Origin: an uncultured Planctomycetales bacterium
Lineage (GTDB): Bacteria; 4484-113
Length of the DNA: 64,000 nt
NCBI GenBank assembly: GCA_964554185.1
Contig: CAZKNJ010000009.1
Span: 5-64,004, forward strand
Direction: 5' to 3'
Under the pieces are notes generated by a model. It saw nothing but the letters and a program-made list of their open reading frames with translations. It was not told where the DNA came from and made no database searches. Of this stretch, positions 2,719 through 62,502 are shown piece after piece; positions within the stretch are counted from its first letter, which is position 1, and every line of letters begins with the position of its first letter. The translations under genes were made by a program, and so were the position numbers.

Positions 2719-5700
2719 TCAGAAGCGGAAACTGACGCCCACATTGGCCACCCACTCTTCCTGCACCTGGCCGCGCTGGCGCCATAGAATTTCACCAAAC
2801 GCCCGCCCTCCGTAACGCTCGTAAAGGTAGTACTTAGCGCCGTATTCCTCGCGCTGGTCTACTTCGGATAGGAAGGTTCGCAAGTAGTTAACGGTGAAGC
2901 CGGGGAAGAGCTCCTTCTCCACGTTCAGCAGGAACGGAGTGCCGGATTTGCCCGTTAGGTCGCTTGACAGGGCACGGAGCTCGAAACGCTTGAAGTCCAG
3001 GCTTTCTTCCAGAAAGCGCGAGAGGCGGGAGCCGGTGAAAGCCAGTGCCTCGCTGCCGATGAAGGTCTGCATCCCGCTGCGCGTCAGATCAAGGCCGGAG
3101 CCGCCGAGCAGGTAGGCGAGGAGGGTCTCGCGCGCGAGCGGCGGGTGGGAGTACATATCTATTTCGTCGAGGTTCTGCTCATCCATCAGCGCCTGCAACG
3201 GCATGTCGTGAAAGCGGAAGTAGATGGTCAGGTCTTCGCCGGTGGGCGCGAAAGGAAGCTCGCTGGGGAGAATCTCCACCGGCATATCGCCGCGCGAAGA
3301 TCGCAGCACACCCGGCAGCTCCACCGCGGCAGTGCCGAACAGGTGCGGTGAGAGGCCGTACTCGGGCTGCATTATTATCTTCGCGGGCTCATCAACCTCG
3401 GTCAGGCGCACGATGCGGTTGAGCACGAGCAGCGAGCCGCGCGTCACATCCAACCGCCCGGAAACCTGCGGCTGCTGCAGCGTTCCGGTGATGTGCACCG
3501 CCTCGGGGCTGTGGAGGGCGACTTCCATCATCAGCGGCCGGTACTTGATCCAGCATTCCTGGCGCACAGATAGCCTGAGGTCAACGTAGGCGTTGAGCGG
3601 GCCGGTTACCGGCGCGGCCGAGGCCAGGGTCGGCAGTTGCACCACAGCGCCGGAACGAACCGCGATATCGCCGGAGATAACGATCGGCTGCTCGCGGAAC
3701 TCCTTGTTGACCGAGACTGTGCCGTCCAGGCCACCCTTGAACAGACCCCTGATCTCCAGTAACTCCAGGCCGGTGAGATCAAGTTCCAGGCCCATTGCTT
3801 CTATCCCGCGAAAGCCGGGGGCAAACTGCACGCGCGAGATGTCCATCCGCGCGAGGTTGTTGCCGCCCTTTCCGTTGGTAGGACGGAGCACTGCGCCCTT
3901 GCCGGTGATAGTGCGCCCGTCAAAGTCAATGTCAGCGCTCAGACTCGCCAACGCAACCATGTCGCGGTAGCCGAGCCCGGACAAGTCGAGCTTGGCATTG
4001 CCGTAGACGAGCGGATCGGACAGCGTGCCTGCGACATCGAGTTCGCAGGTCAGTTTCCCCGCATACTTGACATCTTCCAAAGGGAACAGCGGCTGGGCGC
4101 CTCCCAGGGCGAAATCCTGCGCGCTGACATGCAGGTCAAACGCGTCACTCAGCCCCGGCACCGGCATTACGCCGTTCGCGTACAGCATGGAGCCGCTAGA
4201 GGTAATGGAGGCGTCCCGCAACTCCAGCGCCCCGGAGGCGAACCGTAACATACCGGACACGCTATCGGCCACGATGCCGCCGGCGCTGATCCCGCGCTCG
4301 TCCGCCGAATGAAACGATCCCTCCAGCGCCGGATGCCCCTGCTCATCGCTGGTGACCGCCACGATTAAGCCGATGCCGCCGGATAGCGGGCGGAAGGCCT
4401 CCGGCACCAACGGCTCGAGCATCTCGAGGTCAAGGTAGGGGATGTACAGGTCTATCATTGTGTCTTCCGGCTTCCAGCTCCAGAAACCGGAGGCGGTGGC
4501 GATGGTTTCTTCGTTGTAGGCCTGGAAGCTGTCCACGCGGATGCCGTCGGGCTGGATGTTGAAGGAAATCAGCGCCTCGTCAATGGGAGTGTTCAACACC
4601 GCCCCGTTTTCCAATGAGACCTTGCCCTGCACCACCGGCGTCTCCAGACTTCCCAGGCTCACCATCTCGCCGGTGAGGCCGCCCTTCAAGCCAAGCTTCG
4701 CCAGAGCCGGCGTGACCCGCGCCCAGGGCTCGACCGGGAAATGGTCCATCTGCAGATTCCAATCGCTGCTGCGCCCATTCGCCAATCGCCAGGAACCGTT
4801 GGTTTCCAGCGAGCCGTCGCCCAGGCGGATGCTGCCGCGCTTGACCGTGAGGCCGTTGCCGTTGTACTCCGCATCCACGATGAACTCGTGGAGTTCCTCA
4901 CCGCCGACGCTGCCGCTGGACTGGGCATAACTGCAGGCGACCACCGGAGCGGAGTACTTTCCGTGGGCGTTCACCGCCAAGAGCCCGTCGCCGGTGGCGG
5001 GCAGGCTGAGCTCGGGGTACAAGTGGTCAAGCGCACTCGCGAGCGAGAAATGGTCGTCGCCAACGCGCAGGCTGAATTCGTCTACGGCCAACCAGCCGCT
5101 AGCATTGAGCAGCTCTCCACCAATGCGGGCGTACGCTTTCTCCAGCACCATGTGTCCAGGCTCCAACGCATAGCCGGCTGACACTTCGTAGGCGGTAATC
5201 TGCCTGCCTGCCACCTCCGCTCCCACGCGATTGACAAACGCAGTGCCGTGCAAAAAAGGGTGGTGCATGCTCCCCGAAACAGTGCCGCTGGTGGTCACCG
5301 GATCGATGATTGGTAGGACGCCAAGCCACTTGTGGAGCGAGAGATCTTTGATCTCGTAGCCCAGCAACAGCTTGCTGCCGTCCACGCGCATTGAGCCCTG
5401 GGAGGAAACGGCAGCGGTAGCGTAGCGGCCGGCTAGAGCGAGCACAGCTTCCGTGCCAGCAGTTTTCGCCGCTAGTGATGCCCACAACGGCTCGTCGCCG
5501 ACAACGCCGGAAAGCGTGGCCTGCAGCGTGAAATCCTGCGGAACGCCGCCGCCGTAGGCGCGGAAGTACAAGCGCTCATCCCCGATCTCGGCCTTGCCCG
5601 ATGAACTTGCGCGAGCGCGCCAGCCGTGTTGAGTACGGGACGCCTTGAGGTCAGCAGATGCGACGACGCGGGAGGGAAGGCGCTCGCGTGGAAGAGCAAT

Positions 5701-20512: not shown

Positions 20513-22183
20513 CTAGAAGTGGAGCAGGAACTCGCCGCGAACGAGAGTGATCGCGTCCTCCAGGTTGTTGAACTCACCAGCCGAGATGATGTCCAGGCCG
20601 AGAGAAGCATTCTTCTCAAACGGATAGCGGAAGTTGAACTTCAGCAGTCCGGGACGATCACTAAAGAACGCATTGATGCGCTGGCCGGTGTACCAAGTCA
20701 CCTTACCATAGAGGTCATTGCGGAACGTGTGCTCGGCGGTTAGGCCAAGGCCCTCAAAGTCCGCGGGGAAGTAGTTCTTGCCCTCGCGGCTGATGTTGAA
20801 GGCGTCGGCAACGCCGTTCACCGTGAAGTCCCACTCGCTGAACGGGTCATTGTCCACGTTGGCGTAGACCGGTAGACCTTCCAGCTGCGCGATGTCCGCG
20901 CCGGCGATGCTCACCTTGGTGCGGCCATCGTTGAACACATCGAGCTCAACGATGAGAGACATGTCCTCAAGACCAAAGTCCGAGGCATTGAGATCAGAAA
21001 CGTTGGTCGGAGTGTAGTTCCACTCGGCACGGATGCCGTTGAACCACTCATTATCAAACCACGGAATCTCCGCATTACCGGAGATGCCGATGAACTGCTC
21101 CGCGCCATAGCCGTTGGGGCTGCCGTCGAGGAACAGCTCGAGGTCATGCGCGTGGCCCGGAATAACACCCTCGTGGCCGAAGTACTTCAGGCCCAGGTTC
21201 ACGTAGTCGTCGCTGTCGTTGACGTTCACGAGGCTGGACATGTTGCTGAGGCTGGCGGGATTCCAGTAAGGATTCACGCCAAACACGGCCTCGGTGCGAT
21301 ACGCACCGACGTACGCCGCCCAGCGGGCGTCATGCCACGTGGTGTCGAAGCGATAACCGAAGTCGGAGCGGTAGCCGTTGTCGCCGGCCAGTCCGAACTC
21401 GCCCTCGCTGAAATACTGGCGACCGACGGTCAGCGTCGGGGTGTCGCCGAACGAGTGCGTGTAAGGCGTCAGGCCGATGGTGGCCCTTGCCTCGTCCAGC
21501 ACGAAGCTGCTGGACGCCGAACGGTTGCCGAACGGCGGGTTTCCCGGGCGCGCGGCCACGGTCTCGTTGTTGACGCCCGGGACAAAGCCCGTGCCAACGG
21601 TCCCCTGCGCCTCGGCGGAAGTAATCGTGAAGTCGAAGCGGATGTTCTCCTCCGGCTGGAAGCCCATATGCAAGCCTAGAGCCTGCTCATGACCGAAGTC
21701 ATTACTCCAGTCAACCGCGCCGGTGGTCACATACGCGCCCGTGCGAACACGATAGAACCCGTCGATCTCATTGTCCTTGATGAGGGACTTAAGCATGCGG
21801 ATGTCGTCGGTGTTGGTGTTGACCTGGCCCTCGAGCTGGTCAACGCGGACGCCGATCTCCGCGAGCTCATCCCTGAACTCGTTGCCGAGCCGATCAAGGC
21901 GAGCCTCGATCTCATCAAGACGACCCTGGTCCATGCCCGTCATCATGTCACTGAGCTTCGAGTACATGCGGGCGACGACCATAGCCATTTCGTAGCGGGT
22001 GAACGTCTGATTGCCCTTGAAGGTGCCATCGGGGAAACCCTCTACGAGGCCCTCCTGCTGGAGGTAGTCAATCGCTTCGTATGCCCAGTGATCGGTCGGT
22101 ACGTCACGGAACATGGCTGCCGATGCGGGCACAGCGACTGCCAGAAGCAGAATCGCTGCCAAAGAGAAAACTAAAATACGCAT
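20513..22183 (-). CDS. SLH-domain outer-membrane porin-like protein (OmpM/Omp-alpha-like)
   Basis: Signal peptide LAAILLLAVAVPASA. N-terminal SLH domain (FRDVPTDHWAYEAIDYLQQEGLVEGFPDGTFKGNQTFTRYEMAMVVARM). Coiled-coil segment. About 400-aa beta-rich Gly/aromatic-rich body ending ...LLHF. Start chosen at ATG 22183 with AAGGAG 6 nt upstream. The ORF is open back to 22231. Confidence 0.75.
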   Translation of the reverse strand: MRILVFSLAAILLLAVAVPASAAMFRDVPTDHWAYEAIDYLQQEGLVEGFPDGTFKGNQTFTRYEMAMVVARMYSKLSDMMTGMDQGRLDEIEARLDRLGNEFRDELAEIGVRVDQLEGQVNTNTDDIRMLKSLIKDNEIDGFYRVRTGAYVTTGAVDWSNDFGHEQALGLHMGFQPEENIRFDFTITSAEAQGTVGTGFVPGVNNETVAARPGNPPFGNRSASSSFVLDEARATIGLTPYTHSFGDTPTLTVGRQYFSEGEFGLAGDNGYRSDFGYRFDTTWHDARWAAYVGAYRTEAVFGVNPYWNPASLSNMSSLVNVNDSDDYVNLGLKYFGHEGVIPGHAHDLELFLDGSPNGYGAEQFIGISGNAEIPWFDNEWFNGIRAEWNYTPTNVSDLNASDFGLEDMSLIVELDVFNDGRTKVSIAGADIAQLEGLPVYANVDNDPFSEWDFTVNGVADAFNISREGKNYFPADFEGLGLTAEHTFRNDLYGKVTWYTGQRINAFFSDRPGLLKFNFRYPFEKNASLGLDIISAGEFNNLEDAITLVRGEFLLHF

Positions 22184-22345
22184 TAGGCACTCCTTGGTTA
22201 AGTTGGATTTTGGCCTAACCGAAATCCCCAAGAAGGCCGGACAAGTTGCCTAGTTACCTCTTCCAGCCGTCTTGCTTCATCCGGTGAAGCCAAGATATGG
22301 TGTTACCTACCTCGCTGCCCTAACCAAGTTGTATCACCTCCTTTT

Positions 22346-41365: not shown

Positions 41366-42481
41366 ATGCAGCACTCTTATACGAGAGTGGAAATAGACCT
41401 CCGGAAATACCGGGGGAACCTGGACCTGATACGCAGCGAGCTGGGCGGTACACGGCTGCTCCTGGTGCTGAAGGCGAACGCCTACGGGCTGGGCGCAGTG
41501 GGAATGCTGCCCGCCATCAGCGACCTCCCTGACATCTTCGTGGGAGTTGCGATGGTCGATGAGGCGCTGGAGCTGCGCCAGGCCGACTATCGGGGAAACA
41601 TCCTGGTAATGGGGTACACGCCGCCGGAGCAGTACAAGCTCGCGTTGCGGCACTTCCTGAGCCTCGGCGTGTACCACCCGGAGAACATCGCCAAGCTGGA
41701 AGACGCCGCGGCGGAAAGGGGGACGGTGGCGAAGGTGCATATCAAGGTTGACACCGGCATGCACCGCGTAGGCGTGATGCCCGCAGACCTGCCGAAGCTA
41801 CTGGACGAGATTAAGGAAAACCCGCATGTGGCGGTGGAAGGAGTGTTCTCCCACTTGGCGGGCGCGGGTGATCCCGCCGACCCGCTGATTCCGCAGCAGG
41901 TGACCGCTTTCCGCGAGTGCGCCTCGCGAATTGAAGATGAACTTGGAGTTCACACCATCAAGCATATCGCCAACACTTCGGGCGCTTTGGCTTTTCCCGA
42001 GAGCCGCTTTGATATGGTGCGCATCGGCATACTCCCCATCGGATTCCATCCGCCGGGCTTTGCCGTGCAGAAGCTGCCGGTGCAGCCGATACTCCGGTTC
42101 AGCACCGAAGTGGTGGACGCCCGCCGCGTGCCCGCCGGCACCGGCGTGTCCTACGGCCACAAGTTCCATACGGAAACAGATAGCACCATCATCACGGTTC
42201 CGCTGGGGTACGCCGACGGCATCCCGTACCACTTCTTCCCCGAGGGGCGGGTGCTTTTCCGGGGTAAGAGACGCAGGATTGCCGGCGCGGTGAATATGGA
42301 CTACTTGATGATCAGCGCCGATGACGAGACAGATGTGCAGATCGGCGAAGAGGTTGTGCTCGTGGGCCGGCAGGGCGATGAGGAGATCTCGCTCAACGAG
42401 TTCGCCGACTACTGCGAGAGTGTCAACTACGACATCATCTGCAAGATGGGCCGCCGCATCCGGCGGGATTACCTCTGGTGA
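41366..42481 (+). CDS. alr: alanine racemase
   Basis: PLP-lysine motif VLKANAYGLG. Two-domain layout. ORF is open from 41255. Start chosen at ATG 41366. Confidence 0.9.
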   Translation: MQHSYTRVEIDLRKYRGNLDLIRSELGGTRLLLVLKANAYGLGAVGMLPAISDLPDIFVGVAMVDEALELRQADYRGNILVMGYTPPEQYKLALRHFLSLGVYHPENIAKLEDAAAERGTVAKVHIKVDTGMHRVGVMPADLPKLLDEIKENPHVAVEGVFSHLAGAGDPADPLIPQQVTAFRECASRIEDELGVHTIKHIANTSGALAFPESRFDMVRIGILPIGFHPPGFAVQKLPVQPILRFSTEVVDARRVPAGTGVSYGHKFHTETDSTIITVPLGYADGIPYHFFPEGRVLFRGKRRRIAGAVNMDYLMISADDETDVQIGEEVVLVGRQGDEEISLNEFADYCESVNYDIICKMGRRIRRDYLW

Positions 42482-42530
42482 GGCGGGCATTGCCACCAAG
42501 CCGCGTCGCGCCTACAATGGGCAGCGCCCT

Positions 42531-44870
42531 GTGACCTTACGCATCGTAACAGCCGTTATCATCATCGCTGCAGCACTCGGAGGCTGCGGTTACTGGTTTT
42601 ACCACGCGGTTTACCCGCGGATGCTGACCTTTGAAGAGAAGGTCGATGGGGGCTTTCTGGAAGCGGCATATGGTCAGGCAAGAGTGGAGGTTCGCCGCGA
42701 TCCGTGCAAGCGGACATATGGCCAGCTTGCGCGCATACTGCTGTTGCGCGGCAACATCGGCCGGGCCGACCTCATTGTGCGCGTAACCGGCGCAAGCGAG
42801 CCGCTGGTTGAGGAAGTTCGCGGCTTCCAGGCATCGGTGCTGCGCGAAGCCGAGGAAAGCGGTACGGTCAGCAACCGTTTTGCGCAGGGCGGGCTGGCGG
42901 AACTGAGGGGCTTCCCGGTCTATCAGGACCTCAAGTTCTTTGCGGGCTACCGCCTGGCGTTGCTGGGAGACTGGCGCGGGGCGCAAGACTATTTCCTGAT
43001 GGCCGAGCGGGGCGGAGTGTCCCCCGAGCTGAGTCCCTACTTGAAGTACTATTTGGCGCGCGCACTGACGAAGTCCGCGGATACTAAGGACAGTAAGCGT
43101 GGGTATAGCCTACTGGGCAAGCTGACTGATCCGAAAGACCGGCACGGCCTGCAAGCGCGGGTGTGGCTGAACCTCCTGCAATCGGCCATCGCCAGCGACA
43201 ATCCCGGCTTCTTCAATATGTACCTGATGCACATAGACCGGCTGCACAATTCCTGGGAGTACGCCAAGGCGGAGGTGGCGGTGGGCGACTACTTCCTTAG
43301 CCGTGACGACCCCATCAAAGCAGCCAAGGCTTGTGCGAGAGCGCTGGAGAACTACCCCGACAGCGCGAACACGCGGTTGTCAGCCGCCCAGGGCTTGCTG
43401 AAAGCGCTGACGGTGCTGAATGGCGATTTCCGCAGCCTGGAAGCGGAACTAGCTACTGCGGAATGTTCCAATATCCTCTACCGGTTCGCCGAGACACTGG
43501 ATCAGCCTAATGATCTTGCCGCAGCGGCAGAAACGCTGCGCGGGTCGCTGCGCAACGGCGCGAACAACAGCAGCCGCTTCCTGGCGATGGAGGCGCTTTC
43601 GCTGCTTTACCTGAAGCAAGGGCAAAAGGAGAAGCTGGAAGAGCTGCTGCTGCTGGAAAACCTCGCTCCGGCGCCGGAGAACGTGATTCAAACCTCATAC
43701 TTAAACAACGCCAGGCTGCTGGAGAAGACGGGGCAGACGCTGCAAGCCCGGGGGTATTACGAGAGCGCCGCGAAGCTTGAAGGGCCACGCCGGAGCGAAG
43801 CCCTGTTTGAGCACTACAGCCTGCTCAAGGAAAAGGCAGCTAGCCTTGACGGTTCGGCAGCCATTCGGCTGCTGACGGAAGTGGTGGAGGACGCGGAAAG
43901 CTCTAACCGGCTGAAGGCCTGCGAAGAGCTCATACCGCTGGCTATCGCGGCGGGCCGCACGGATACCGCCAAGCGGTCGATTGAGATTGCCGGCGAACTG
44001 GACGACGCGCTGGCGCGGTTCTGGCGCATCTACCTGGCCGAGCACGGCGGGGACGCGAAAGAGGCGGAACGGCTGCGCTCGGAAATCATGGTTAGGGCCT
44101 TTAGCTACTACGAGCTGCAACCGCTGGGGAAGCTGGAGAAGAAGCGGATTGAGTGCAGGAGTGCGCCTTTCTACCTGGAAGACGAGACCGCAGCGGAATA
44201 CCTGGTGGGGTTGTTCCTCACTGACCTGGCCTGCGAAGTGAGCGACGTTTCCCGACCGTATGAGCTTTCGGCGGTGCCAGCCGCCATCGTGCTGCGCAAT
44301 TACGAGTTTGCTGAGAGTGTCAAGACCAGCAGCTGGTTCGCCACTGAAATGCTGGAACAGGGGCCGATGATGGATGGCGCGCTGACCAGCTACGCCCTGC
44401 GGCTGGCATATCCCCTTCCCTACAAAGACGAGGTGGCGCAGGCGGCGCAGCGTTACTCTGTCCCCGAAGAGCTTATATATGCGGTGATGAAGAAGGAGAG
44501 CAATTTTGACCCGATTGCCACCTCCAAGGCAGGAGCGAGGGGGCTGATGCAGCTTATGCCGGCAACCGCGGAGGTCTTCTCCCGCTTCCTGCTCCCGGAG
44601 CTGGCCGGCAGGCCGCTCGGTGATCCGTCCAAGAATGTACACCTGGGTGCATCGTACCTCGCGAGCCTGACCACGGCTTACCGGCAGCAGTATCTGGTAC
44701 TATCGGCGTATAATGGCGGTCCAGGCAACTTGAACCGCTGGAGGCAGCAGGCCGTAACCGACGACCCGCTGGTCTTTCTGGAGATAATCCCGAACAGCGA
44801 AAACGAGGCTTTCGTCAAGAAAACCACGAAGTACGCGCTGATTTATCGCTATGTCTTGGCTGCAAACTAG
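42531..44870 (+). CDS. slt: soluble lytic murein transglycosylase (superhelical TPR-like N-domain + SLT catalytic domain)
   Basis: C-terminal SLT motifs MKKESNFDP, GLMQLMP and YNGGPGN. N-terminal TM after a GTG start at 42531. ORF is open from 42321 overlapping alr. Confidence 0.8.
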   Translation: MTLRIVTAVIIIAAALGGCGYWFYHAVYPRMLTFEEKVDGGFLEAAYGQARVEVRRDPCKRTYGQLARILLLRGNIGRADLIVRVTGASEPLVEEVRGFQASVLREAEESGTVSNRFAQGGLAELRGFPVYQDLKFFAGYRLALLGDWRGAQDYFLMAERGGVSPELSPYLKYYLARALTKSADTKDSKRGYSLLGKLTDPKDRHGLQARVWLNLLQSAIASDNPGFFNMYLMHIDRLHNSWEYAKAEVAVGDYFLSRDDPIKAAKACARALENYPDSANTRLSAAQGLLKALTVLNGDFRSLEAELATAECSNILYRFAETLDQPNDLAAAAETLRGSLRNGANNSSRFLAMEALSLLYLKQGQKEKLEELLLLENLAPAPENVIQTSYLNNARLLEKTGQTLQARGYYESAAKLEGPRRSEALFEHYSLLKEKAASLDGSAAIRLLTEVVEDAESSNRLKACEELIPLAIAAGRTDTAKRSIEIAGELDDALARFWRIYLAEHGGDAKEAERLRSEIMVRAFSYYELQPLGKLEKKRIECRSAPFYLEDETAAEYLVGLFLTDLACEVSDVSRPYELSAVPAAIVLRNYEFAESVKTSSWFATEMLEQGPMMDGALTSYALRLAYPLPYKDEVAQAAQRYSVPEELIYAVMKKESNFDPIATSKAGARGLMQLMPATAEVFSRFLLPELAGRPLGDPSKNVHLGASYLASLTTAYRQQYLVLSAYNGGPGNLNRWRQQAVTDDPLVFLEIIPNSENEAFVKKTTKYALIYRYVLAAN

Positions 44871-45322: not shown

Positions 45323-45793
45323 CTATCCGGTCTCCGCCCTCGCTATATCATCCAGCAACTTGCTGAACAATGGATGGCGCGTGGTGTACCGCGGGTCGTC
45401 CAGCACCAGTTGCCGCCCCTTGCGTGTCTGCGAGTTGATGACCACCGGCCCGAGCAGGTTGGCCGACGAACGGATGAAATCCTCGTGGATGGTTACAATA
45501 ACGTAGACGCGGATGAGAGCCAGCTCTGCGTCAGAATTCAGCAGGCAGCGCACCTTGTCCAGACTGATTTCGTAATCGGGGAAGAACAAGAACGGGTCAA
45601 CCACGAAAAACGAGAGGTCGGCGCTTTCCAGGCTGACCAGCCACATGAAGGGCTCCAAGTCGGCGTCCTTGTGCACGATGAACTGCTTGTACTCCGGGAA
45701 GCCGACCATGCCGTGCGGGAAGGTGAGGATGTCCTCCATTGTGTATTCCAGTAGGCCGAGTCGGTTGCTTCTAACCCGCACGTAATTCCCCAA
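45323..45793 (-). CDS. fliW: flagellar assembly factor FliW
   Basis: ...ILTFPHGMVGFPEYKQFIV...FVVDPF...YEISL... matches the FliW fold. Start may be the internal ATG at 45739. Confidence 0.8.
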   Translation of the reverse strand: MGNYVRVRSNRLGLLEYTMEDILTFPHGMVGFPEYKQFIVHKDADLEPFMWLVSLESADLSFFVVDPFLFFPDYEISLDKVRCLLNSDAELALIRVYVIVTIHEDFIRSSANLLGPVVINSQTRKGRQLVLDDPRYTTRHPLFSKLLDDIARAETG

Positions 45794-45873: not shown

Positions 45874-46326
45874 TCAGGCGCTCCTTGAGTTAGCCCCGAA
45901 ACCGCTGATGTATGAGATACCCACGGACGATGGCGTGTAGTCAATCCACAGCCCTCCGCTCCTGATGGCGATGCTGGGACGGGACTTCGGGATTAGATCA
46001 ACATTGAAGTACTTGTCCCGCAGATCCAACATTGTCCGCTCGTAGGACAGCTCGGCGAACGCATTCCCGGGCTCGTACGCCTGAGCCATTCGCTCTCCGG
46101 CGGCTACGGTGTCCGAGATACCCTTGGCGACCTGAGCCTGAGCGAACTCGGCGTCCTTCCGCGCCTGCGCGACCGCTTTCTCATAACCCATCTCGGAGCG
46201 CAGCTTGGTGCAGTCCACCTCGATCTGAGGCAGCTCTCGTTGCAGCTCCAACCGGCCGCGCTCGGTGTGGATGGCGAGCCGGCCGCCCATGAAACCACCT
46301 GAGGTTGTCGCCGACAGGTCAATCAT
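45874..46326 (-). CDS. hypothetical protein in the flgL-fliW interval (YviE-like position)
   Basis: 150 aa with no known motif. Occupies the slot held by yviE in Bacillus-type flgK-flgL-yviE-fliW operons. Confidence 0.35.
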   Translation of the reverse strand: MIDLSATTSGGFMGGRLAIHTERGRLELQRELPQIEVDCTKLRSEMGYEKAVAQARKDAEFAQAQVAKGISDTVAAGERMAQAYEPGNAFAELSYERTMLDLRDKYFNVDLIPKSRPSIAIRSGGLWIDYTPSSVGISYISGFGANSRSA

Positions 46327-46332
46327 CGCGAG

Positions 46333-49038
46333 TTACCGCAAGTAATCAAACAACGAGGGCGGAAGCAGCTGCGCACCCACGCCCAGCGACGCGTTCAATA
46401 CATTCTCCAGCGTCTTGAGCTCGGTGATGATGCGTGCCATGTCCACATCGTCGTTGCTGGATTTCAGCTCGGTGAGATTCTGGATAATCCCTTCGTTCTG
46501 GGTTTGTGTTCTCTCCAGCCGGTTGGTACGCGAGCCCACCTGCGCCTGGGCGGAGAGGATGGTCTCTATGCCGGTGTCCAGGTTCGTTAGCCGGTCGTCC
46601 AGGTTGATAAACCGCTCGTCCTCACCGAGGCTCAGGCTGCGCATCTCCCCCTGCGGCACCAGATTGCCGGACACGCCGGCAAAGGCGCTATTAAACGCGT
46701 CCACCGGGTTTCCCGCAGGGTCTTCCGCCATCACCGAGATGCCCGTCACGGTCGCGGTGGTTGTGTTGGAGATATAGAAAGAGCCGTCAGCGCCCAGCCG
46801 AGCCTCAATGCCCGCACCGAGCCTGCGCTCCAGCTCATCGGCGAGCTCTTCGCAGGTGGTGAACCGGCGCACTATGAAATCGCTGCTGACACCCGCGGCG
46901 GTGATGGTTATCTTGCTGCCCGGAAACAGACCCAGCGGTTTGCCAGAAGCATCAAGCATATCAACCAGCTTGCTGTCGCGATCCGCATAGCCCAGCAGCG
47001 CGTCGCGGATGCGTATCATCGTGTCCACGATGTTGTCGGGCAGCTCAATCTTCCCCTGGCCGTCGGCGCTGCCCGCGCCGGGCACCGTGGATCCGCCAAG
47101 CCCCAGCCCCGCGAGCGTTCCCACCGCCACATCCGCTACTACCAGGTCATCAGCCTGAACCCGGCTGCCGGTCGCGACGGTTTCCAAGATGATGTTGCCG
47201 AAGCCGTCGTCCCGGGCCTGCACCGTGCCGCGCAGCACGTTGTTCAGGTTAATCTGGTTGTTCAGCTCATTGGTGATGGAGTTGATGGTGGCGTAGGCAC
47301 CGGGGGTGAGCGTTATCGTCTGCGGTGGGGGGTTGGTTCCATCAAGGCTGGCGCCCGCCCCCAGGTCAATGGTGAACTGGTCGTTGACGCCCGCAGTGAT
47401 AATGACGCCTGGCGGGAAGCTGACGGTGCCCTGGATGTAAGCCGGCCTGGGCGTGTCCGAGAGCCCCAGTGACGCCAGAGTCCCCGCGGCAGCGTCGGAT
47501 ATCGCCAGATCAGAACCGAGTACGTCAATGCCCTTCTTGTAGGTCTCCAGGCGCAGGCGTCCACCGTCATTGCGGGCGCGAATGAGTCCAGTAAGCTCCG
47601 GGCTGCGATCTATCTGCTCGTTGATGCTCTGCACCAGGCCGTCGATGTTGACCGCAACGGTTGCGTCTATGTTGATCTCAACCGCAGCGGGATCATAGGC
47701 CTTGTCGCCGCGCCAGACGCTCGGTCCCAGGTCAATGACGAAACGGTCATTGCCGTCAGTGCCGGCGAAGTCCGCGAGATCCGGCCCTCCCGCCGCCGTC
47801 AGGCCCAGCACCACCGACGCCGTGTCTGTCTCGCCCAGGTCGCTCATGCCGCCAAGCTGGAAGTCGGCGGTGGAAACCGTGCTGTTTTGTACGAAAGTCT
47901 CCAGCTGCAGGAAGCCGCCGCCATCGGTGACCATGACCTTGTCCTCTCCGAAGGCGCCATCGATGCGCGCCTGCAGCTCCGCGGCAATCTCGGCCACTGA
48001 GTTGTAGGCCTGGTGGGTGAGCTTGATTGCCTTGCTCTCGTTAGCCCCCTGGTTGGCGTTTGGCCCCAGGCGCACTACCAGCGTGTCGTTGGTGGCGTTG
48101 ACTGTAAGCGGGGTGCCCAGCGCGCCTCCAATGTGGATAGCGCCGGTGGAATCAATCAGCGGCAGCGCGGGCGCGGTGCGCGCGAGGTTGAACGCGCCCT
48201 GCGGCAGAATCCCCATGTCTTCCAGGACGGTGCCGGACTGGTCGGAAACCTCAATCGGCTCGCTGGAATTCAGCGACTCCAGTTTCAGCACGAAGTTGCG
48301 GTCAATGCGGGCGTAAATCTCGGCAGCTGGATCAGCGTTTATCTTGTCTCTGACGGTAGTCAGCGTGTCGTTCGCGTCAATCAAGAAGCTGCGGCCGTTA
48401 ATGATGATGGTGCCGGCAAAGCCCAGCGGCCCGCCACCAAGCTGCTTGCTGGTAAGAGTGTAGGTCTTCTCCAGGTAGACGTCCTTGCCGTTCAGGTTCA
48501 CATACAGGTCCTGACCGACCTGGATGTTACGGTCGATCTGCCCGGTGTCTCCGCGGAAGGTCACAGAGGACATGTGGGACGAGCCGGTCTCGTAGTTGAA
48601 ATCGAAGGTCTTGGTCAGTGTCTCCCAGCCGGAGAAGATGTAGTTTCCGCGGAAATTGGAGTTGCCCAGCGCAGTGACGCTCTCCAGCAGCTGATTGATT
48701 TCCAGGGCGAGGGCGCCCCGATCATCGCGCGTGAGATAAGTACTGGCGCCTTGAACCGTCAGCTCGCGCACGCGCTGAATCTGCTGGTTGGTGTCCGACA
48801 ACGCGGTCTCGGTGAAGGACAGGCGCGATGTGCCGTCTTCTATGTTGCGGTTGTACTGGTTGAGAAACGCCAGGACGCTGTCAAGGTTCATACTGGTGGC
48901 CACCGCCGCCGGCGCGTCCTGCGGCCGGCTGAACTTCTTCCCGGTGGCGGTCTGATGCTGAAGCTCGGCCAGCCGCTGCTGCACCAAGCTCAGGTCACGC
49001 AGGAAGTTCTCCATCAGCAAACCACTGGTTACTCGCAT
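46333..49038 (-). CDS. flgL: flagellar hook-associated protein 3 (FlgL), giant 901-aa form with internal flagellin-IN-like repeats
   Basis: Flagellin-type N-terminal helices (MRVTSGLLMENFLRDL...SRPQDAP...). Flagellin-type C-terminal helices (...ILSAQAQVGSRTNRLERTQ...LPPSLFDYLR). About 5 internal about 60-70-aa repeats sharing IN....I.A.I...F.L.LET...G.V......G.L..LGL. Confidence 0.8.
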   Translation of the reverse strand: MRVTSGLLMENFLRDLSLVQQRLAELQHQTATGKKFSRPQDAPAAVATSMNLDSVLAFLNQYNRNIEDGTSRLSFTETALSDTNQQIQRVRELTVQGASTYLTRDDRGALALEINQLLESVTALGNSNFRGNYIFSGWETLTKTFDFNYETGSSHMSSVTFRGDTGQIDRNIQVGQDLYVNLNGKDVYLEKTYTLTSKQLGGGPLGFAGTIIINGRSFLIDANDTLTTVRDKINADPAAEIYARIDRNFVLKLESLNSSEPIEVSDQSGTVLEDMGILPQGAFNLARTAPALPLIDSTGAIHIGGALGTPLTVNATNDTLVVRLGPNANQGANESKAIKLTHQAYNSVAEIAAELQARIDGAFGEDKVMVTDGGGFLQLETFVQNSTVSTADFQLGGMSDLGETDTASVVLGLTAAGGPDLADFAGTDGNDRFVIDLGPSVWRGDKAYDPAAVEINIDATVAVNIDGLVQSINEQIDRSPELTGLIRARNDGGRLRLETYKKGIDVLGSDLAISDAAAGTLASLGLSDTPRPAYIQGTVSFPPGVIITAGVNDQFTIDLGAGASLDGTNPPPQTITLTPGAYATINSITNELNNQINLNNVLRGTVQARDDGFGNIILETVATGSRVQADDLVVADVAVGTLAGLGLGGSTVPGAGSADGQGKIELPDNIVDTMIRIRDALLGYADRDSKLVDMLDASGKPLGLFPGSKITITAAGVSSDFIVRRFTTCEELADELERRLGAGIEARLGADGSFYISNTTTATVTGISVMAEDPAGNPVDAFNSAFAGVSGNLVPQGEMRSLSLGEDERFINLDDRLTNLDTGIETILSAQAQVGSRTNRLERTQTQNEGIIQNLTELKSSNDDVDMARIITELKTLENVLNASLGVGAQLLPPSLFDYLR

Positions 49039-49041
49039 CTC

Positions 49042-50847
49042 TTATCCTCCGGCCGCTCCCACGAGATTGACAATCACGTCAAGGATGTCGTCTATCGTCG
49101 TTATGGCACGGGCGGACGCCGTAAAAGCCTTCTGGTAACGGATCAGGTTCACTGCTTCTTCGTCCAGCGACACACCGGACACGGATTCCCGCCGTGCCTT
49201 GACCTCGTCCAGCACCTGCTGCTGCGCCTGCCGACTGCTCACCATCACCGCGCCGTCCGCCCCCAGGATGGAAATCAGCCCCTGGTAGTACTCGCTGAAA
49301 GTGGCCTTGAGGAAGCCGTCCTTCTCATTCTTCAAGTCAGCGATGGCAAGCGCGGTGCGGTTATCCCCGGGCCCACCCATCTGACCAGAGCCATCGTCCG
49401 CGGCGGCGGCGATGGCTTGCAGGCTGGAGAGGATGCTGGGAGACAGGCCGAACGCCTTCAACGAGCCACCGTACTCGGCAGAGCCCAGGAGCTGCTGCTG
49501 CTGATCAGGATCCAAGCCGGCGAGCTCAAAGAAGTTGCAGGTTCCGTCCTTGATATTGATGCGCTCATCGGCGCTGACCGGGTTCATCTTCTCCACCACT
49601 ATGCGGGGGAATCCCAGCGTAGTGTCGAGCGAAAAGCGCAGATCGGGAGTGGCCGAGTTCATCCGATCAAGCAGCTCGCCCAACGTCAGCGCAGTACCGG
49701 GCCGCACTTCCTCCGGCGAGACCTCCACCCGCACGCCTTCAAGGAAGAAATCACCGTAAACTACACCCAACTCGTCCAGCGTGGTATCCAGCGTCGTGCC
49801 TGACGCCAGCGGCTTCAGTCCATCCAGCTTCCATGTCCCGAAATCGTTGAAGAACGGGCGATTGCTGTTGCCGTCAAGACCGAAGCCCTCCAAGTGCATC
49901 ATGTTGATCCGGTTCGCGAGGGTCGTTACCAAAGTACCGAACTCGTCGCGGAAAGCCGGGATGTACTGGTCACGCAAGTTGACCAGGCCGAGCAACTCGC
50001 CATCGGTCAGCGGCGCCGCCACCTTGGACTTGGTGAAGCGCAGCATCGGCCGCTCGGTTTCGGTTTCACTCATCCCCAGCTCCAGCTGGTCGAAGAAGCC
50101 GTCCTGGACAATCGGGTGTCCCATCAGGTAGACGGATACGCCGCCGTCCGGAGTATCTTCCGTGCGCACGTTGATCATCTTGGACATCTCGCGCACGAGC
50201 TGGTCGCGGGAATCCTTCAGGTCGTTAGCGTTCTGGTTGCCCCCGCCGGTTTCAATCTGGATTATCTGCTCGTTCAGGCTCGCGATTTCGCGGGCAAGGC
50301 TGTTGACCTCGGTAATCTTGGTCTCCAGCTGGTCGTTGATGTTCTTTACTTCCAGATCCAGCTTGCGGGCCGCTTCGTTCACGAAGCCGGTGAGCGAGCG
50401 GGTAACCTCCACCAGGTTGGTGCGCGCGGAGAGGCTCTCGGGCGAATTGGACATGTCCTCCCAGGCGTCAAAGAACTCGGACAGCAGCTGGTTGAACCCG
50501 TAGTCGCTGGGATCGGCGAAGATGTTCTCAATGCGCCGGAGCCCGTCATCTACAACCTCATAGCGCCCCAAGGTGCTGCCTTCTTTGAGCAACTGGGACT
50601 CGATGAACTCGTCGCGGATGCGGGTGATGCTCTTGATCTCTACGCCGGTTCCGATGGTGCCGGGCTTGAGAGTGACTCCGATACCGGGGAACGTCAGAGG
50701 GAAGCTGGCCTTCAGGTCGACCCGCTGGCGGGTGTAGCCCTCGGTGTTGGCGTTGGCGATGTTATGGGAAACAGTATCCAGCGCCCCACGGGCGGCTAGC
50801 ACGCCCTTCTTGGCTATTTCCAGACCCAGAAATGTCCCTCGTATCAT
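49042..50847 (-). CDS. flgK: flagellar hook-associated protein 1 (FlgK)
   Basis: N-terminus GLEIAKKGVLAARGALDTVSHNIANANTEGYTRQRV. C-terminal FlgK helices. Confidence 0.9.
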   Translation of the reverse strand: MIRGTFLGLEIAKKGVLAARGALDTVSHNIANANTEGYTRQRVDLKASFPLTFPGIGVTLKPGTIGTGVEIKSITRIRDEFIESQLLKEGSTLGRYEVVDDGLRRIENIFADPSDYGFNQLLSEFFDAWEDMSNSPESLSARTNLVEVTRSLTGFVNEAARKLDLEVKNINDQLETKITEVNSLAREIASLNEQIIQIETGGGNQNANDLKDSRDQLVREMSKMINVRTEDTPDGGVSVYLMGHPIVQDGFFDQLELGMSETETERPMLRFTKSKVAAPLTDGELLGLVNLRDQYIPAFRDEFGTLVTTLANRINMMHLEGFGLDGNSNRPFFNDFGTWKLDGLKPLASGTTLDTTLDELGVVYGDFFLEGVRVEVSPEEVRPGTALTLGELLDRMNSATPDLRFSLDTTLGFPRIVVEKMNPVSADERINIKDGTCNFFELAGLDPDQQQQLLGSAEYGGSLKAFGLSPSILSSLQAIAAAADDGSGQMGGPGDNRTALAIADLKNEKDGFLKATFSEYYQGLISILGADGAVMVSSRQAQQQVLDEVKARRESVSGVSLDEEAVNLIRYQKAFTASARAITTIDDILDVIVNLVGAAGG

Positions 50848-50857
50848 CCTTAGCTCC

Positions 50858-51367
50858 TCAGAAGCGGTGGTCTACCAGGTGTCTTTGGGCAGAGCCGACG
50901 GGGACGCCGCCGTAGCCCGACGATTCCTCAACGCCCAGCAGCAACCTGAAGACAGCATTGATGTAGGTGTTCAGGCTGTTGAGCAGAGCGTTGTTGGTGG
51001 TGGTCAGTTCGGCGGTCCGCGCCGTGGATTCCCGAAGTTGCCGCGCCAAGGAAGAGAACTCATCCGCCCGCGCCGCGCCAATGTGGTCCGCCGCAGCGGA
51101 CAAGAGAGGCTGAAGCCGCAACTCGCCGCCAACGCCGACTTCGCGGGAAAGCGCCGCAAGCTCGCCGCGCAAGTCCAGCTCGCATCGACGAAGGTCAAAG
51201 GCGAGCTTCTCCTGCTCGGGGGCAAGCTGCGCAAGCCGTTCATAATCGCAGCCGACGAGCGCCGTCACTCCGTCTTCAAGCGCCGCGTTCAGCCGCACGG
51301 AAAGGTCCAGACAGTTGGACAGCCCGGTTTTAACTCTCGATAAGGTCGTCAAACACGCCCTCCGCAA
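50858..51367 (-). CDS. flgN: FlgN-like flagellar export chaperone (start uncertain)
   Basis: Small helical protein immediately upstream of flgK. ORF begins at TTG 51367, overlapping the flgM stop. An alternative GTG start is at 51301. Confidence 0.55.
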   Translation of the reverse strand: MRRACLTTLSRVKTGLSNCLDLSVRLNAALEDGVTALVGCDYERLAQLAPEQEKLAFDLRRCELDLRGELAALSREVGVGGELRLQPLLSAAADHIGAARADEFSSLARQLRESTARTAELTTTNNALLNSLNTYINAVFRLLLGVEESSGYGGVPVGSAQRHLVDHRF

Positions 51368-51635
51368 TCATCTTCTCGGCCAAGGCACGCTCATCAACGG
51401 TGATTTCACCTTTTTCGTAGAGCGCCTTTAGCTCAGTGATGCGGGCGGATCGTTCTTTGGCAAAACTCTCCCTGAGGACGTGGTCGAAAGCCACCTGGCC
51501 GCGGTCGCTAATCTCGACCGTATCTCCAGCCTTCCTGGCCTTCCGTTCAAGTTCAACGGCTCCCTTCCCCTCCTTCAGATGCAGGCGGGCGAGGGACAAG
51601 ATCGCATTGATATCAGGAATCTTCATCGCCGTCAC
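51330..51635 (-). CDS. flgM: anti-sigma-28 factor FlgM
   Basis: 101 aa. C-terminal ...ITELKALYEKGEITVDERALAEKMI... matches the FlgM sigma-28-binding helices. Confidence 0.7.
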   Translation of the reverse strand: MTAMKIPDINAILSLARLHLKEGKGAVELERKARKAGDTVEISDRGQVAFDHVLRESFAKERSARITELKALYEKGEITVDERALAEKMIAEGVFDDLIES

Positions 51636-59346: not shown

Positions 59347-60648
59347 CTACGCGAGGTTACGGGCCTTGAGTTCAAGGTATTTGTTAATCACGTCAGCGGA
59401 GAGCCTGCTCGCGTAGGTGCGAACAACATCCACCCCGGAGCGCCTTAGCCTCTCACAGAACGCCTTCTTCTCCTTGAGATAGGCAACCGCGGCGGCATGC
59501 AGCAGGAAATGCTCCTCGCGGGTCATGGGGGCCACGGCGGTGGAGTACATCTCGGGGTCGTCCATCATTATTACGACTATCTGGTGCCGCCGGGCCAGGA
59601 CCGACAAGGTGTTAAGCGCCTTCCTGCAGGTGATGCTGTCAGTCAGCTCGGTGAAAAGGAAAAGCACCGCCCGCTTGGGGTGGTTGCGCTGCAAAAAGGC
59701 GAGGAGGCGGGGGAAATCGCTTTCCACGTGCTGTGGGTAGAAGGGGAACAGGTCGGCCAGCACATCAGGCTGGCGGGTGGGCTGGCGGTAGAATCGCACT
59801 TCGCGATCAAACAGCGCCACGCCCATCCGGTCGTTTTCCAGCTTGAGCGCATAGCTGAGCTGCGCGATGGCGTCCAGACAACGGTCAAACCGCGACTTGC
59901 CTTCAATGCCGGTGAACATCTGACGCCCACCGTCCAGTACGGCTATCACCTCGCGGTCGCGTTCAGCCCGGTACTCACTGACGATCGGGCGGTTGAGCCG
60001 GGCGGTGGCCTTCCAGTTAATCTTGCTGTAAGCGTCGTCCGGAAGGTAGTCGCGCAAGCTGTCGAAGTCGGTTCCTTCGCCCAGCATCCGAATCGTGTGC
60101 TGGCCGCGCATGTACACGCGCAGGCGGTGATGAAACGGGTTTAGCGCCAGGTAATCGGAGATATGGGGAAAGACCTTTATGCGGCCTTCGGGGTGCCGCC
60201 GCCGGGCAATCTGCCAGAGGCCAAACTTGCTCGTATAGCGCGCGAAGATAGGCCCGGGATCCAGCGCTCCCCGGACCAGGGCGGTGAACTTCACTTCAAA
60301 TCGCCTGGCGGCGCCCCGGGTAAGCTCAAATCTCTGCTCCGGGAAGGTCTTGCGCAGATGGGTGTAGGAGTTCTCGTCAAAGACACCGCGAATCGGGCGC
60401 GAAAGCGTGTTGCGGATGGTGACTGTGTAAGTTCCGGGGAAGTCCACCGCCCAGATATCGGGCGCATCGCGCTCAATCTCCGGCCCGGATTCGCGCGCAG
60501 AAAGGGCCAGGTCAACCAGAGCGCCAGCAACTAGCACGCCGAGAATCACCTTGAACGCGGTAAGGGCCAGCGGGCTGGACATTCCCAAGTACAGGAATCC
60601 GAGGCTGATCAGCAGGAGCAACCCGAAATTCTTGGAGGGGATGGTCAT
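59347..60648 (-). CDS. DUF58-family protein (vWA-like), paralog 2, translationally coupled to flhB
   Basis: Two N-terminal TMs. DUF58 core ...YSKINWKATARLNRPIVSEYRAERD.... Its ATG overlaps the flhB stop (ATGA at 60645..60648). Confidence 0.8.
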   Translation of the reverse strand: MTIPSKNFGLLLLISLGFLYLGMSSPLALTAFKVILGVLVAGALVDLALSARESGPEIERDAPDIWAVDFPGTYTVTIRNTLSRPIRGVFDENSYTHLRKTFPEQRFELTRGAARRFEVKFTALVRGALDPGPIFARYTSKFGLWQIARRRHPEGRIKVFPHISDYLALNPFHHRLRVYMRGQHTIRMLGEGTDFDSLRDYLPDDAYSKINWKATARLNRPIVSEYRAERDREVIAVLDGGRQMFTGIEGKSRFDRCLDAIAQLSYALKLENDRMGVALFDREVRFYRQPTRQPDVLADLFPFYPQHVESDFPRLLAFLQRNHPKRAVLFLFTELTDSITCRKALNTLSVLARRHQIVVIMMDDPEMYSTAVAPMTREEHFLLHAAAVAYLKEKKAFCERLRRSGVDVVRTYASRLSADVINKYLELKARNLA

Positions 60649-61721
60649 GCCCGCAGTGAAGATAGCTTGCGCCGTAGCTTCTCGTCAACCCGGGTAAGGA
60701 ACGCCAGCACTTGGGCGACCGCCTGGAACAGGGCGGGCGGGATAATGTCATCCACCTCCAGCCTATAGAGCGCCTGGGCGAGGTAGCGGTCTTCGTAGAG
60801 AGGGATGCCGTGTTTCATCGCCTCGCGCCTGATGCGCTCGGCCATGTAGTCCTTGCCCTTTGCAATGATGCGCGGCGCGGCGAACTCCGGCTCGTAGAGC
60901 AGCGCCACGGCGTACTGCGTCGGGTTGGTGATAACCACATCGGCTTCCTTCACCCGCTGCATCATCCGCCGGAAAGCGATTGCACGGCCGAATTCGCGCA
61001 GGCGGCGCTTGATGAGCGGGTCGCCCTCCTGCTCTTTCATCTCATCCTTCACCTCGCGCTTGGACATGCGGACGCCCTTCTCAAACTCAAAGCGCTGGTA
61101 GGCGTAGTCCAGCAGCGCCAGGATTAGCAGCACGGCGGAGGAAACGAACCCAATTTTCAGGGCAATGCGGAAAACAGCGGCAAAGGCGGCTTCCGGCGTC
61201 ATGCCGGACAGCATCAGCAGCACGGGAGCCTCCGCGCGTAGGATCATCACCACTATCACCGCCACGGCCAGAATCTTCAGGAGGTTTTTCAGCGTATCAA
61301 AGGCTGCCCTGAGCGAAAACAGGCGCTTGAAGCCGTTGATGGGGTTGATGCGATCGAGCTTGGGCGTAATGGGGTCGGAGGAGAACACCAGCCCGACCTG
61401 CGCCATGCTAGATAGCAGCCCTGCTGCGAAAACCACGATGAGCACCGGGCCGAGAAGGGTGAGCGTCATGGTAATCACGAGGTTGAAGATGCCGGGGAGG
61501 GTCTCGGTGGAAATATCCATCCCGCCGGCATTGCCCACGAGCTGCCTGAACAGGCGGTTGAACGTGTCACCCATATAGCCTTGAAGCAGGCTCACCGCGC
61601 CGAAGACCAGGAGCAGGGTCACGGCGGAGACGACTTCCACCGAACGGGCCACCTGCCCCTTCTCGCGGGCCTTGCGGCGCTTTCGCGGCGTAGCCGGTTC
61701 GGTTTTATTTTCGTCAGCCAT
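60645..61721 (-). CDS. flhB: flagellar biosynthesis protein FlhB (export gate/substrate-specificity switch)
   Basis: N-terminus PRKRRKAREKGQVARS. Four TMs. Autocleavage-site region VVITNPTQYAVAL has NPTQ in place of the usual NPTH. Confidence 0.9.
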   Translation of the reverse strand: MADENKTEPATPRKRRKAREKGQVARSVEVVSAVTLLLVFGAVSLLQGYMGDTFNRLFRQLVGNAGGMDISTETLPGIFNLVITMTLTLLGPVLIVVFAAGLLSSMAQVGLVFSSDPITPKLDRINPINGFKRLFSLRAAFDTLKNLLKILAVAVIVVMILRAEAPVLLMLSGMTPEAAFAAVFRIALKIGFVSSAVLLILALLDYAYQRFEFEKGVRMSKREVKDEMKEQEGDPLIKRRLREFGRAIAFRRMMQRVKEADVVITNPTQYAVALLYEPEFAAPRIIAKGKDYMAERIRREAMKHGIPLYEDRYLAQALYRLEVDDIIPPALFQAVAQVLAFLTRVDEKLRRKLSSLRA

Positions 61722-61728
61722 CGGGCAA

Positions 61729-62502
61729 TCATCCGGTTATGAACCGCAGCGTATCCTGGAATATGGTGCGGCTGGCGCGCTCGGTGAGCACTCCGTAGGT
61801 CATCACCGCCGCCGAGAGCATGAACAGGCCAAAGGCAATCTTAATGGGCAGACCCACAAAGAAGACATTCATCTGGGGCATAATCCGCGCCAGAATGCCA
61901 AGCGAGATGTCAGTGAGTATGAGAAACGCCATCAACGGGGCCGCGAGCTGGAATGCGATGATGAACATGTCGGTGCAGACGCGCCCGAGGTCGGCGAGGC
62001 TCCATAGCCCCATGTCTACCTGGCCCGGCGGCGCCAGTACCAGCGAGTCGTGCCAGATATAGATGAGGCCGTGGTGGAGGTTGAGGTTGAGGAATACGAG
62101 CATCGAGAGGGTGAACAGGAATTCGGCGATCAAGGAAGTCTGCTGCTGGGTGGCGAAATCAAAGACATTGACCACGGCGAAGCCCATCTGATAGCCGATG
62201 TGCTCGCCTGCTACGTAGAAGGCGACGAAGATGAGGCCCACAAAGAAGCCCAGCAGCGCGCCAACCGCCAACTCGGTCATCATTGCGGGGACGTAGTTGC
62301 TCATCTCCAGCAGCTCGGGGTGCAGCTCCGGCCGGTTCACAACAAAGAACAGCAGTGCCAGGAAGAAGGAGAGCGTAATCTTAAACACCGCGGGCACATT
62401 GCGCCCGGAGAAGAGAGGCGCCACGAAGAAGAACGCCGAGATGCGCGCGAAATACAGCGAAAACAGCGCGAACTGGAACGTCCCGAGGTCGAGAATGGTC
62501 AT
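61729..62502 (-). CDS. fliR: flagellar biosynthesis protein FliR
   Basis: 257-aa polytopic protein. N-terminus LFSLYFARISAFFFVAPLFSGRNVP is typical of FliR. Start is 7 nt after the flhB-preceding stop. Confidence 0.85.
   Translation of the reverse strand: MTILDLGTFQFALFSLYFARISAFFFVAPLFSGRNVPAVFKITLSFFLALLFFVVNRPELHPELLEMSNYVPAMMTELAVGALLGFFVGLIFVAFYVAGEHIGYQMGFAVVNVFDFATQQQTSLIAEFLFTLSMLVFLNLNLHHGLIYIWHDSLVLAPPGQVDMGLWSLADLGRVCTDMFIIAFQLAAPLMAFLILTDISLGILARIMPQMNVFFVGLPIKIAFGLFMLSAAVMTYGVLTERASRTIFQDTLRFITG

Follow-up and report, generated by a model that had tools for sequence, protein, structure and literature searches.

The DNA analyzed here is a 64,000-nucleotide (nt) stretch, hereafter the window, of contig CAZKNJ010000009.1 from an uncultured Planctomycetales bacterium, and it carries on one strand a flagellar gene cluster in the order flgM-flgN-flgK-flgL-DUF6470-fliW. 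We focused our attention on flgL, whose open reading frame (ORF) occupies exactly 46333-49038 on the minus strand (the strand of all features below, unless stated otherwise), runs from ATG to TAA, and encodes 901 amino acids (aa) plus the stop codon. The gaps around the gene measure 3-10 nt, and a GGAGGA Shine-Dalgarno sequence lies 6 nt upstream of the ATG, within the 3' end of flgK. The initial annotation had described the product as a very large FlgL with canonical ends and about five tandem Flagellin_IN-like repeats between them, and the identification as FlgL was confirmed: the FlgL equivalog model TIGR02550 gives 225.4 bits (cut-off 127.2), while Pfam Flagellin_N matches residues 14-139 (72.2 bits, E 5.7e-20) and Flagellin_C residues 818-891 (25.3 bits), both above cut-off. 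The N-terminal D0/D1 helices (residues 1-140, 48619-49038) are supported by Flagellin_N, by the helices that AlphaFold places at 5-32, 43-97 and 104-125, and by solved FlgL chains. They are followed by the D1 beta-hairpin region (residues 141-205, 48424-48618), which was defined from the AlphaFold secondary structure, includes a low-confidence loop at 168-180, and is matched by FlgL models up to about residue 190-237. At the other extreme, the C-terminal D1/D0 helices (residues 806-901, 46336-46623) are supported by Flagellin_C and by predicted helices at 807-863, 867-891 and 894-900. The best solved matches to the family profile are FlgL chains, namely 5yti_A (1.6e-33), Salmonella 9go6_L (1.4e-27) and 7c7z (4.9e-21), and these matches are confined to residues 1-190 and the C-terminus.

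Flagellins and FlgL proteins both carry Flagellin_N and Flagellin_C, and many flagellin models match the protein in part, which would also fit a giant flagellin, i.e., a filament subunit, mis-read as FlgL. In addition, a large Geovibrio flagellin (9au6) heads the structural matches, and the module that fills the middle of the protein is present in giant flagellins. However, the FlgL equivalog model alone is above its cut-off, all flagellin models giving 20-67 bits against their own cut-offs of 217-627, and flagellins recovered with the module profile reach about 82-86 bits with TIGR02550, below the 127.2-bit cut-off. Moreover, among solved structures the closest in sequence are FlgL chains, and the gene directly follows flgK, a pairing that recurs in the one related locus examined (L002), in which the genes downstream of flgL differ. 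The giant-flagellin reading was thus rejected as highly improbable, and the 901-aa protein is, judging from its sequence, FlgL (hook-associated protein 3), which at the hook-filament junction makes up the distal layer.

Its unusual length was the only prompt for suspecting that the long ORF fuses flgL to another gene through an assembly or annotation error, and no support for this was found. Homology searches returned 25 homologues of 899-945 aa, with 34-88% identity, covering 99-100% of the 901-aa query. Moreover, a genome scan yielded 13 loci. Every one belongs to a metagenome-assembled genome that carries the label UBP7, "Planctomycetales bacterium" or "bacterium", and among them is the closed chromosome CP060262.1 (HK-STAS-UBP7_A-1). 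Homologues of the same length and layout and these 13 independent assemblies rule out a fusion, which the initial annotation had raised as a possible objection; furthermore, the flagellin-type ends sit at the extremes of the ORF and pack together in the predicted structure. We regard the chance of such an artefact as practically nil.

The region between the ends is composed of five units. R1 (residues 206-290, 48169-48423) and R5 (residues 706-800, 46639-46923, the most diverged) flank three repeats of about 105 aa each: R2 (residues 309-418, 47785-48114), R3 (residues 427-534, 47437-47760) and R4 (residues 549-655, 47074-47394). Pairwise Smith-Waterman comparison of the segments against 300 shuffles gave z values of 17.8 for R3/R4, 5.3 for R2/R3, 4.5 for R2/R4 and 3.8 for R1/R2, with marginal values (0.4-2.4) for the pairs including R5. 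Profile-profile comparison by hhalign was then applied to segment profiles cut from alignment A1, which holds the 901-aa protein and its 25 full-length homologues (26 sequences). The strongest pair was again R3-R4 (E=1.8e-27, probability 99.8%, 36% identity), followed by R2-R4 (E=3.1e-10, 96.8%) and R2-R3 (E=3.4e-10, 96.7%); R1 aligned with R5 at E=5.4e-6 (85.7%) and with R3 at E=1.2e-4 (55.3%). The remaining pairs were weaker: R2-R5 at E=2.6e-3 (11.5%), R1-R4 at E=4.4e-3 (7.9%), R1-R2 at E 0.014, and R3-R5 and R4-R5 at the level of the controls. These controls, in which an end or D1-beta segment was compared with another segment, gave E values of 0.07-0.8, the sole exception (D1b-R1) being an artefact, as these two segments overlap by 8 residues. 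The repeat alignments share one register, with the pattern (N/T)D.F.IDLG ... I.L..G.Y ... L..EIN.QI ... L.G.V.A ... G.L.LET...GS.V...DL.V.D...GTLA.LGL. The internal repeats therefore exceed chance, with shuffle z up to 17.8 and hhalign E down to 1.8e-27.

With a hidden Markov model (HMM) of R2-R4, the protein shows exactly three domains, at 316-416, 428-534 and 551-655 (92, 115 and 118 bits, respectively), and no further match occurs anywhere in the 64-kb window. The same HMM detects three such units in all 25 homologues and in all 13 genome loci. An N-terminally truncated relative of this FlgL family (P0031) has four R2-R4-type units, showing that the copy number has changed at least once within the family. 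The layout is thus nested, R1-[R2-R3-R4]-R5, with three clear repeats of about 105 aa flanked by two shorter and diverged units. Accordingly, the five repeats proposed initially stand as five related domains within an insert of about 600 aa, but the units are not equivalent and do not form a simple tandem array; likewise, the repeat intervals then given fall inside the five domains, but span only the C-terminal two thirds of each.

Self-BLASTP of FlgL (word size 2, unmasked) returned the identity match alone, because the repeats are too diverged, and Tandem Repeats Finder detected in flgL no long-period DNA repeat matching the repeat period. Paralogous repeats are at best 36% identical (R3/R4), as compared to about 49% between orthologous repeats. 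Since no repeat is detectable at the DNA level and orthologous repeats are closer to each other than paralogous ones, the duplications are old and predate the family. Mean pairwise identity per repeat is about 0.49, on a par with the D0/D1 core, R5 (0.43) being the least conserved region. Such even conservation of every unit argues against a role in antigenic variation; the initial annotation had named antigenicity among the possible consequences of the insert.

The full-length protein was also modelled with AlphaFold2 on alignment A1 (mean predicted local distance difference test score, pLDDT, 85.7; predicted template modelling score, pTM, 0.68). The model shows a flagellin-type core made of long helices at 5-125 and 807-900, a beta region at 141-205, and five units spanning 209-275 (R1), 319-395 (R2), 432-524 (R3), 554-645 (R4) and 709-785 (R5). 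Each unit follows the order strand-strand-helix-strand-strand-strand-short helix, with the terminal short helix not predicted in R2, an additional short N-terminal strand in R2 and R4, and a longer loop between strands 1 and 2 in R2-R4. A stand-alone AlphaFold model of R4, obtained with an alignment of 32 R2, R3 and R4 sequences (A2), has the same order (pLDDT 90.4, pTM 0.83). This common order of predicted secondary-structure elements supports the interpretation of the five units as related domains. In structural comparison, the best matches of the full-length model were the Geovibrio giant flagellin 9au6 and the Campylobacter FlgL 9gsx, both at E about 1e-14, but with template modelling (TM) scores of 0.24-0.35; given these low TM scores, the match was read as coming from the shared core. 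When the repeat profile was searched against sequences in the Protein Data Bank (PDB), the matches were at chance level only (a RipA coiled coil, E 0.09; a Stenotrophomonas flagellin outer domain, E 0.21).

Hook-associated proteins and flagellins bear between one and five copies of the Flagellin_IN motif, usually repeated (PMC9751261), and the initial annotation had likened the repeats to this motif. The likeness was borne out in part, at one position of the array: Flagellin_IN (PF07196, Pfam gathering cut-off 22.7 bits) misses the window protein entirely, matching neither the whole sequence at E<=1 nor the five excised repeats at E<=10, but it matches 14 of the 26 family members at E<=1 (best E 8.4e-10). 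In three members checked singly, the match at the R1 position is above cut-off (P0010, 26.2 bits; P0013, 27.2 bits; P0016, 37-39 bits), and R1 can therefore be taken, by homology, as a Flagellin_IN domain. On the family consensus, R1 and R3 reach 19.2 and 16.2 bits, both below the cut-off, and R2, R4 and R5 of P0016 and of the consensus have no match. The Ile-Asn pair that lies within the helix is kept in R1 (I233-N234, mid-helix) and R3 (I472-N473), its place being taken, in the hhalign register, by Leu-Gln in R2 (L355-Q356), Leu-Asn in R4 (L592-N593) and Leu-Glu in R5 (L736-E737). Across the family, N234, N473 and N593 hardly vary, and Q356 does not vary at all. Compared with the 55-aa Flagellin_IN motif, R2-R4 are longer (about 105 aa), with an added N-terminal strand-loop-strand, and are unrecognised by Pfam; they are better called, at the sequence level, a module uncatalogued in Pfam, with Flagellin_IN-like topology and a weak but consistent link to R1.

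How firm that link is bears on whether the five units have one origin, as R2-R4 could also be a separate family only outwardly like Flagellin_IN, in which case the insert would consist of one or two Flagellin_IN-type domains (R1 and perhaps R5) together with an unrelated three-copy insertion. The uneven Flagellin_IN matches, limited to R1 in the homologues with R3 of the consensus trailing and R2, R4 and R5 silent, would fit such an origin, as would the failure of the R2-R4 HMM to detect R1 and R5 of the window protein (R1 at an independent E-value, i-E, of 29), the weak hhalign values of R1 with R2 and R4, and the control-level values of R5 with R3 and R4. Nevertheless, the R1-R3 alignment sets helix on helix and strand on strand, the R2-R4 HMM weakly matches the R1 position in three distant homologues (i-E 0.004-0.05), the element order is identical in all five model units, and some of the proteins found with the R2-R4 profile bear weak Flagellin_IN matches, at or just under the Pfam cut-off. 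We therefore consider a separate origin of R2-R4 unlikely, and favour one array of five related domains.

The distribution of the module was evaluated in an exhaustive search of 1.84 billion representative proteins with the A2 profile, which matched 265 clusters at E<=1e-3, of which 75 reached E<=1e-10; a word-index search with A2 gave nothing at E<=1e-3, which was taken as a limit of the word index and not as a negative result. Seventeen matches were sampled outside the recognisable full-length family. Eight of them are flagellin/FlgL-type proteins (six with both Flagellin_N and Flagellin_C, P0047 with Flagellin_C only, and one outside the Pfam tables), half of which are giants of 1,247-1,768 aa with 6-8 matched stretches; the others comprise three FliD, two FlgE, two non-flagellar proteins and two fragments of this FlgL family. 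According to NCBIfam, P0040 (853 aa, five stretches) and P0054 (713 aa, four stretches) are FlgLs of other lineages, so that large FlgLs with several modules are not confined to the lineage studied here. Two other large FlgLs are P0028 (946 aa) and P0026 (643 aa), whereas P0043, P0076 and P0078 are flagellins. In the two FlgE hook proteins (P0099 and P0155), a single copy of the module is inserted between the D1 and D2 regions, and its use therefore extends to hook, junction, filament and cap proteins. The two non-flagellar matches are P0041, a 2,569-aa He_PIG/Big_9/cadherin-like protein with 20 matched stretches (E 2e-32), and P0046, a 1,481-aa FG-GAP protein; they may reflect either true sharing of the domain or a likeness between Gly/Asp-rich strand-loop motifs.

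Based on these results, we propose that this FlgL carries five domains of the same element order which form an exposed collar that stiffens or protects the junction, the array stemming from an old duplication; we consider this arrangement probable. Residues 1-140 and 806-901 would build the D0/D1 core, stacked between FlgK and flagellin, while the approximately 600 residues between them would fold into five small domains, with R1 and R5 presumably adjoining the core and R2-R4 lying between them. In the flagella of Salmonella and Campylobacter, cryo-electron microscopy (cryo-EM) shows 11 FlgL subunits as the distal junction layer under the filament, with D0/D1 buried and D2 exposed (PMC12221982), and in FlgL crystal structures D1 is constant, whereas D2 varies and decorates the D1 ring, with a proposed function in reinforcing contacts between FlgL subunits (PMC6155364). 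By analogy, the insert would face outward on an 11-subunit ring, placing 55 domains in a thick exposed collar whose added lateral contacts may make the junction and the filament base stiffer or shield them, a role already put forward for the smaller D2. The large outer domain at the hook-filament junction that the initial annotation envisaged is thus what the solved junctions would lead one to expect (PMC12221982, PMC6155364), while its suggestion of a role in sheath, S-layer or outer-membrane passage found no support in this analysis. The array itself would have arisen by old internal duplication of a module common to the outer domains of flagellins, FliD, FlgE and other FlgLs. Moreover, conservation of the insert equals that of the core, whereas in many flagellins the outer domains are variable; this hints at a structural task for it at the junction.

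Several points weigh against this proposal. We infer the outward placement, the 11 subunits, the position of R1 and R5 beside the core and the mechanical role, the collar and its function being drawn from other organisms; the size of the collar, the pairing of R1 with R5 and the fit of the insert to an 11-subunit lattice are likewise presumed. Membership of R5 depends mainly on a single profile-profile match (E 5.4e-6) and on topology. In addition, the single-repeat model had no significant Foldseek match in the PDB (best E 0.13) or in BFVD (best E 0.016), hits to phage tail sheath proteins and FliD included, and the link to Flagellin_IN-type domains therefore relies on profile comparison of sequences and on a common secondary-structure order. 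Finally, no gene for flagellin, FliD or FlgE turned up, either in the window or at any of the 13 related loci.

The outer array could also work mainly as a binding or display surface, for instance in adhesion to polysaccharides or other surfaces, in flagellar or sheath docking, or as a decoy for phages or predators, the junction working mechanically without it. Outer domains have been connected with binding elsewhere, as in Sphingomonas flagellin p5, whose Flagellin_IN-bearing beta-domain was investigated with regard to alginate binding and localisation at the cell surface (PMC9751261). The profile matches to surface-type non-flagellar proteins (one He_PIG/Big_9 and one FG-GAP) would fit this function, as would the repeat's best structural matches, weak ones to decoration domains in the tail sheath proteins of phages; furthermore, the even conservation of all repeats suits a specific partner as well as it suits a mechanical role. 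Nevertheless, only 11 copies per flagellum in a narrow ring would make a poorer adhesin site than the filament, Pfam scans of the insert found no binding motif or known binding family, and the non-flagellar and phage matches are unverified or not significant. A primary function in binding or display thus appears rather unlikely to us.

A more far-reaching possibility is that the insert forms, across UBP7, a lineage-defining and position-specifically constrained disc or sleeve of 55 domains, much wider than known junctions and engaged in specific partner contacts. Such partners could be the first filament turns, the DUF6470 protein encoded alongside or, during initiation, the cap. Room for this idea is given by repeats that are as conserved as the D0/D1 core and by a module with neither a Pfam entry nor a significant solved neighbour; if true, it would give the junction a role beyond that of a mechanical adaptor. 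We hold it to be quite doubtful, and continue to prefer the simpler stiffening or protective collar.

Regarding the genes around flgL, flgK (49042-50847), encoding the 601-aa proximal junction protein, is well supported by TIGR02492 (350.8 bits, cut-off 170.75) and by Pfam FlgK_D1, Flg_bb_rod and Flg_bbr_C, and its stop codon lies 3 nt ahead of the flgL start. Upstream of it are a gene for an FlgN-like export chaperone (50858-51367; Pfam FlgN 40.1 bits, cut-off 30.5), FlgN being the chaperone of FlgK and FlgL in model organisms, and flgM (51330-51635; Pfam FlgM 30.3 bits, cut-off 25), encoding the anti-sigma-28 factor. As listed, the FlgN ORF starts with TTG at 51367 and overlaps the 3' end of flgM by 38 nt (51330-51367); flgN itself probably begins further downstream. 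On the other side, the DUF6470 gene (45874-46326; Pfam DUF6470 59.8 bits, cut-off 28.9) stands between flgL and fliW and begins 6 nt past the flgL stop, as read directly from the junction sequence. It is followed by fliW (45323-45793; Pfam FliW 121.5 bits, NCBIfam FliW models at E about 1e-37), which encodes the flagellin-binding assembly factor. The order flgM-flgN-flgK-flgL-small ORF-fliW is that of the late flagellar operon of Bacillus subtilis. Here, however, neither csrA nor a flagellin gene comes after fliW, the next gene being a tetratricopeptide repeat (TPR) gene on the opposite strand.

Genes for FlhB (Bac_export_2, 392 bits) and FliR (Bac_export_1, 201 bits) were found at 60645-62502, about 9 kb from the flgM-fliW cluster. 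Genes for an M19 dipeptidase, a thiolase, a GT2 glycosyltransferase, a CarboxypepD_reg protein, and PLD-like and DUF58 proteins lie in between, and the flagellar genes are therefore scattered over at least two blocks. The window also encodes a TamB-like protein of 1,543 aa (2719-7350), which points to a diderm envelope, and an SLH-domain protein (20513-22231). An 849-aa ORF at 42321-44870 on the plus strand has an SLT lytic transglycosylase domain only at residues 706-812. Since its first approximately 60 residues are rich in Arg, Ser, Thr and Ala, the ORF may start further downstream; the gene may be linked to the adjoining flagellar genes, or its position may be a coincidence. A 596-aa antisense ORF (48013-49803, plus strand) crosses the flgK/flgL boundary, and numerous further long ORFs overlap real genes in this window of 60% G+C; these look like composition artefacts and not like genes.

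With respect to annotation, the protein is correctly called FlgL despite its size, and it defines a conserved FlgL family of about 900 aa in the uncultured candidate phylum UBP7. It provides an example, independent of that in Campylobacterota, of a junction protein with a large outer structure, in this case grown by duplicating a small alpha/beta module. The R2-R4 module is absent from Pfam even though 265 clusters match it, and a family model would improve the annotation of the "hypervariable" middles of large flagellar proteins. A large FlgL does not overturn the current understanding of the flagellar junction: FlgLs with an enlarged outer part are already known, this one being an unusually large case of a familiar route of growth among flagellar proteins, and what is new is a well-conserved UBP7 member built from Flagellin_IN-like modules.

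Comparison with known systems places this protein among several enlarged relatives. With its figure of about 300 aa for a usual FlgL, the initial annotation makes large forms look rarer than they are: there are curated FlgL models with 749 and 827 positions, Campylobacter FlgL has 750 aa (9GSX), and FlgLs of other lineages have 713-946 aa. The FlgLs of Campylobacter jejuni and Helicobacter pylori (750 and about 828 aa, respectively) likewise combine a canonical D0/D1 with a very large insert at the same position, which in C. jejuni forms a bulky D2 (PDB 9GSX, PMC12221982). Nevertheless, PRK08412 (78.2 bits, cut-off 749) and PRK14692 (61.6 bits, cut-off 878) match the window FlgL only at residues 1-184 and below cut-off, and the R2-R4 profile has no match to the 9gsx sequence even at E<=10; from these sequence comparisons, the enlargement looks independent of that in Campylobacterota and built from a different, repeated module. 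The two-domain FlgLs of Xanthomonas campestris and Legionella pneumophila (5ZIZ, 5YTI, 7C7Z) are built on the same principle, D1 being constant and the outward D2 variable, but their D2 is one beta-sandwich of about 100 residues resembling that of FlgK, whereas five alpha/beta domains over about 600 residues are predicted here. The four giant flagellins sampled (about 1,250-1,770 aa) repeat the same module, in 5-11 copies, between flagellin ends, three of them with Flagellin_N and Flagellin_C and the fourth with Flagellin_C only. However, giant flagellins are filament subunits present in thousands of copies, while this FlgL is a junction protein that, by analogy, would be present in 11 copies.

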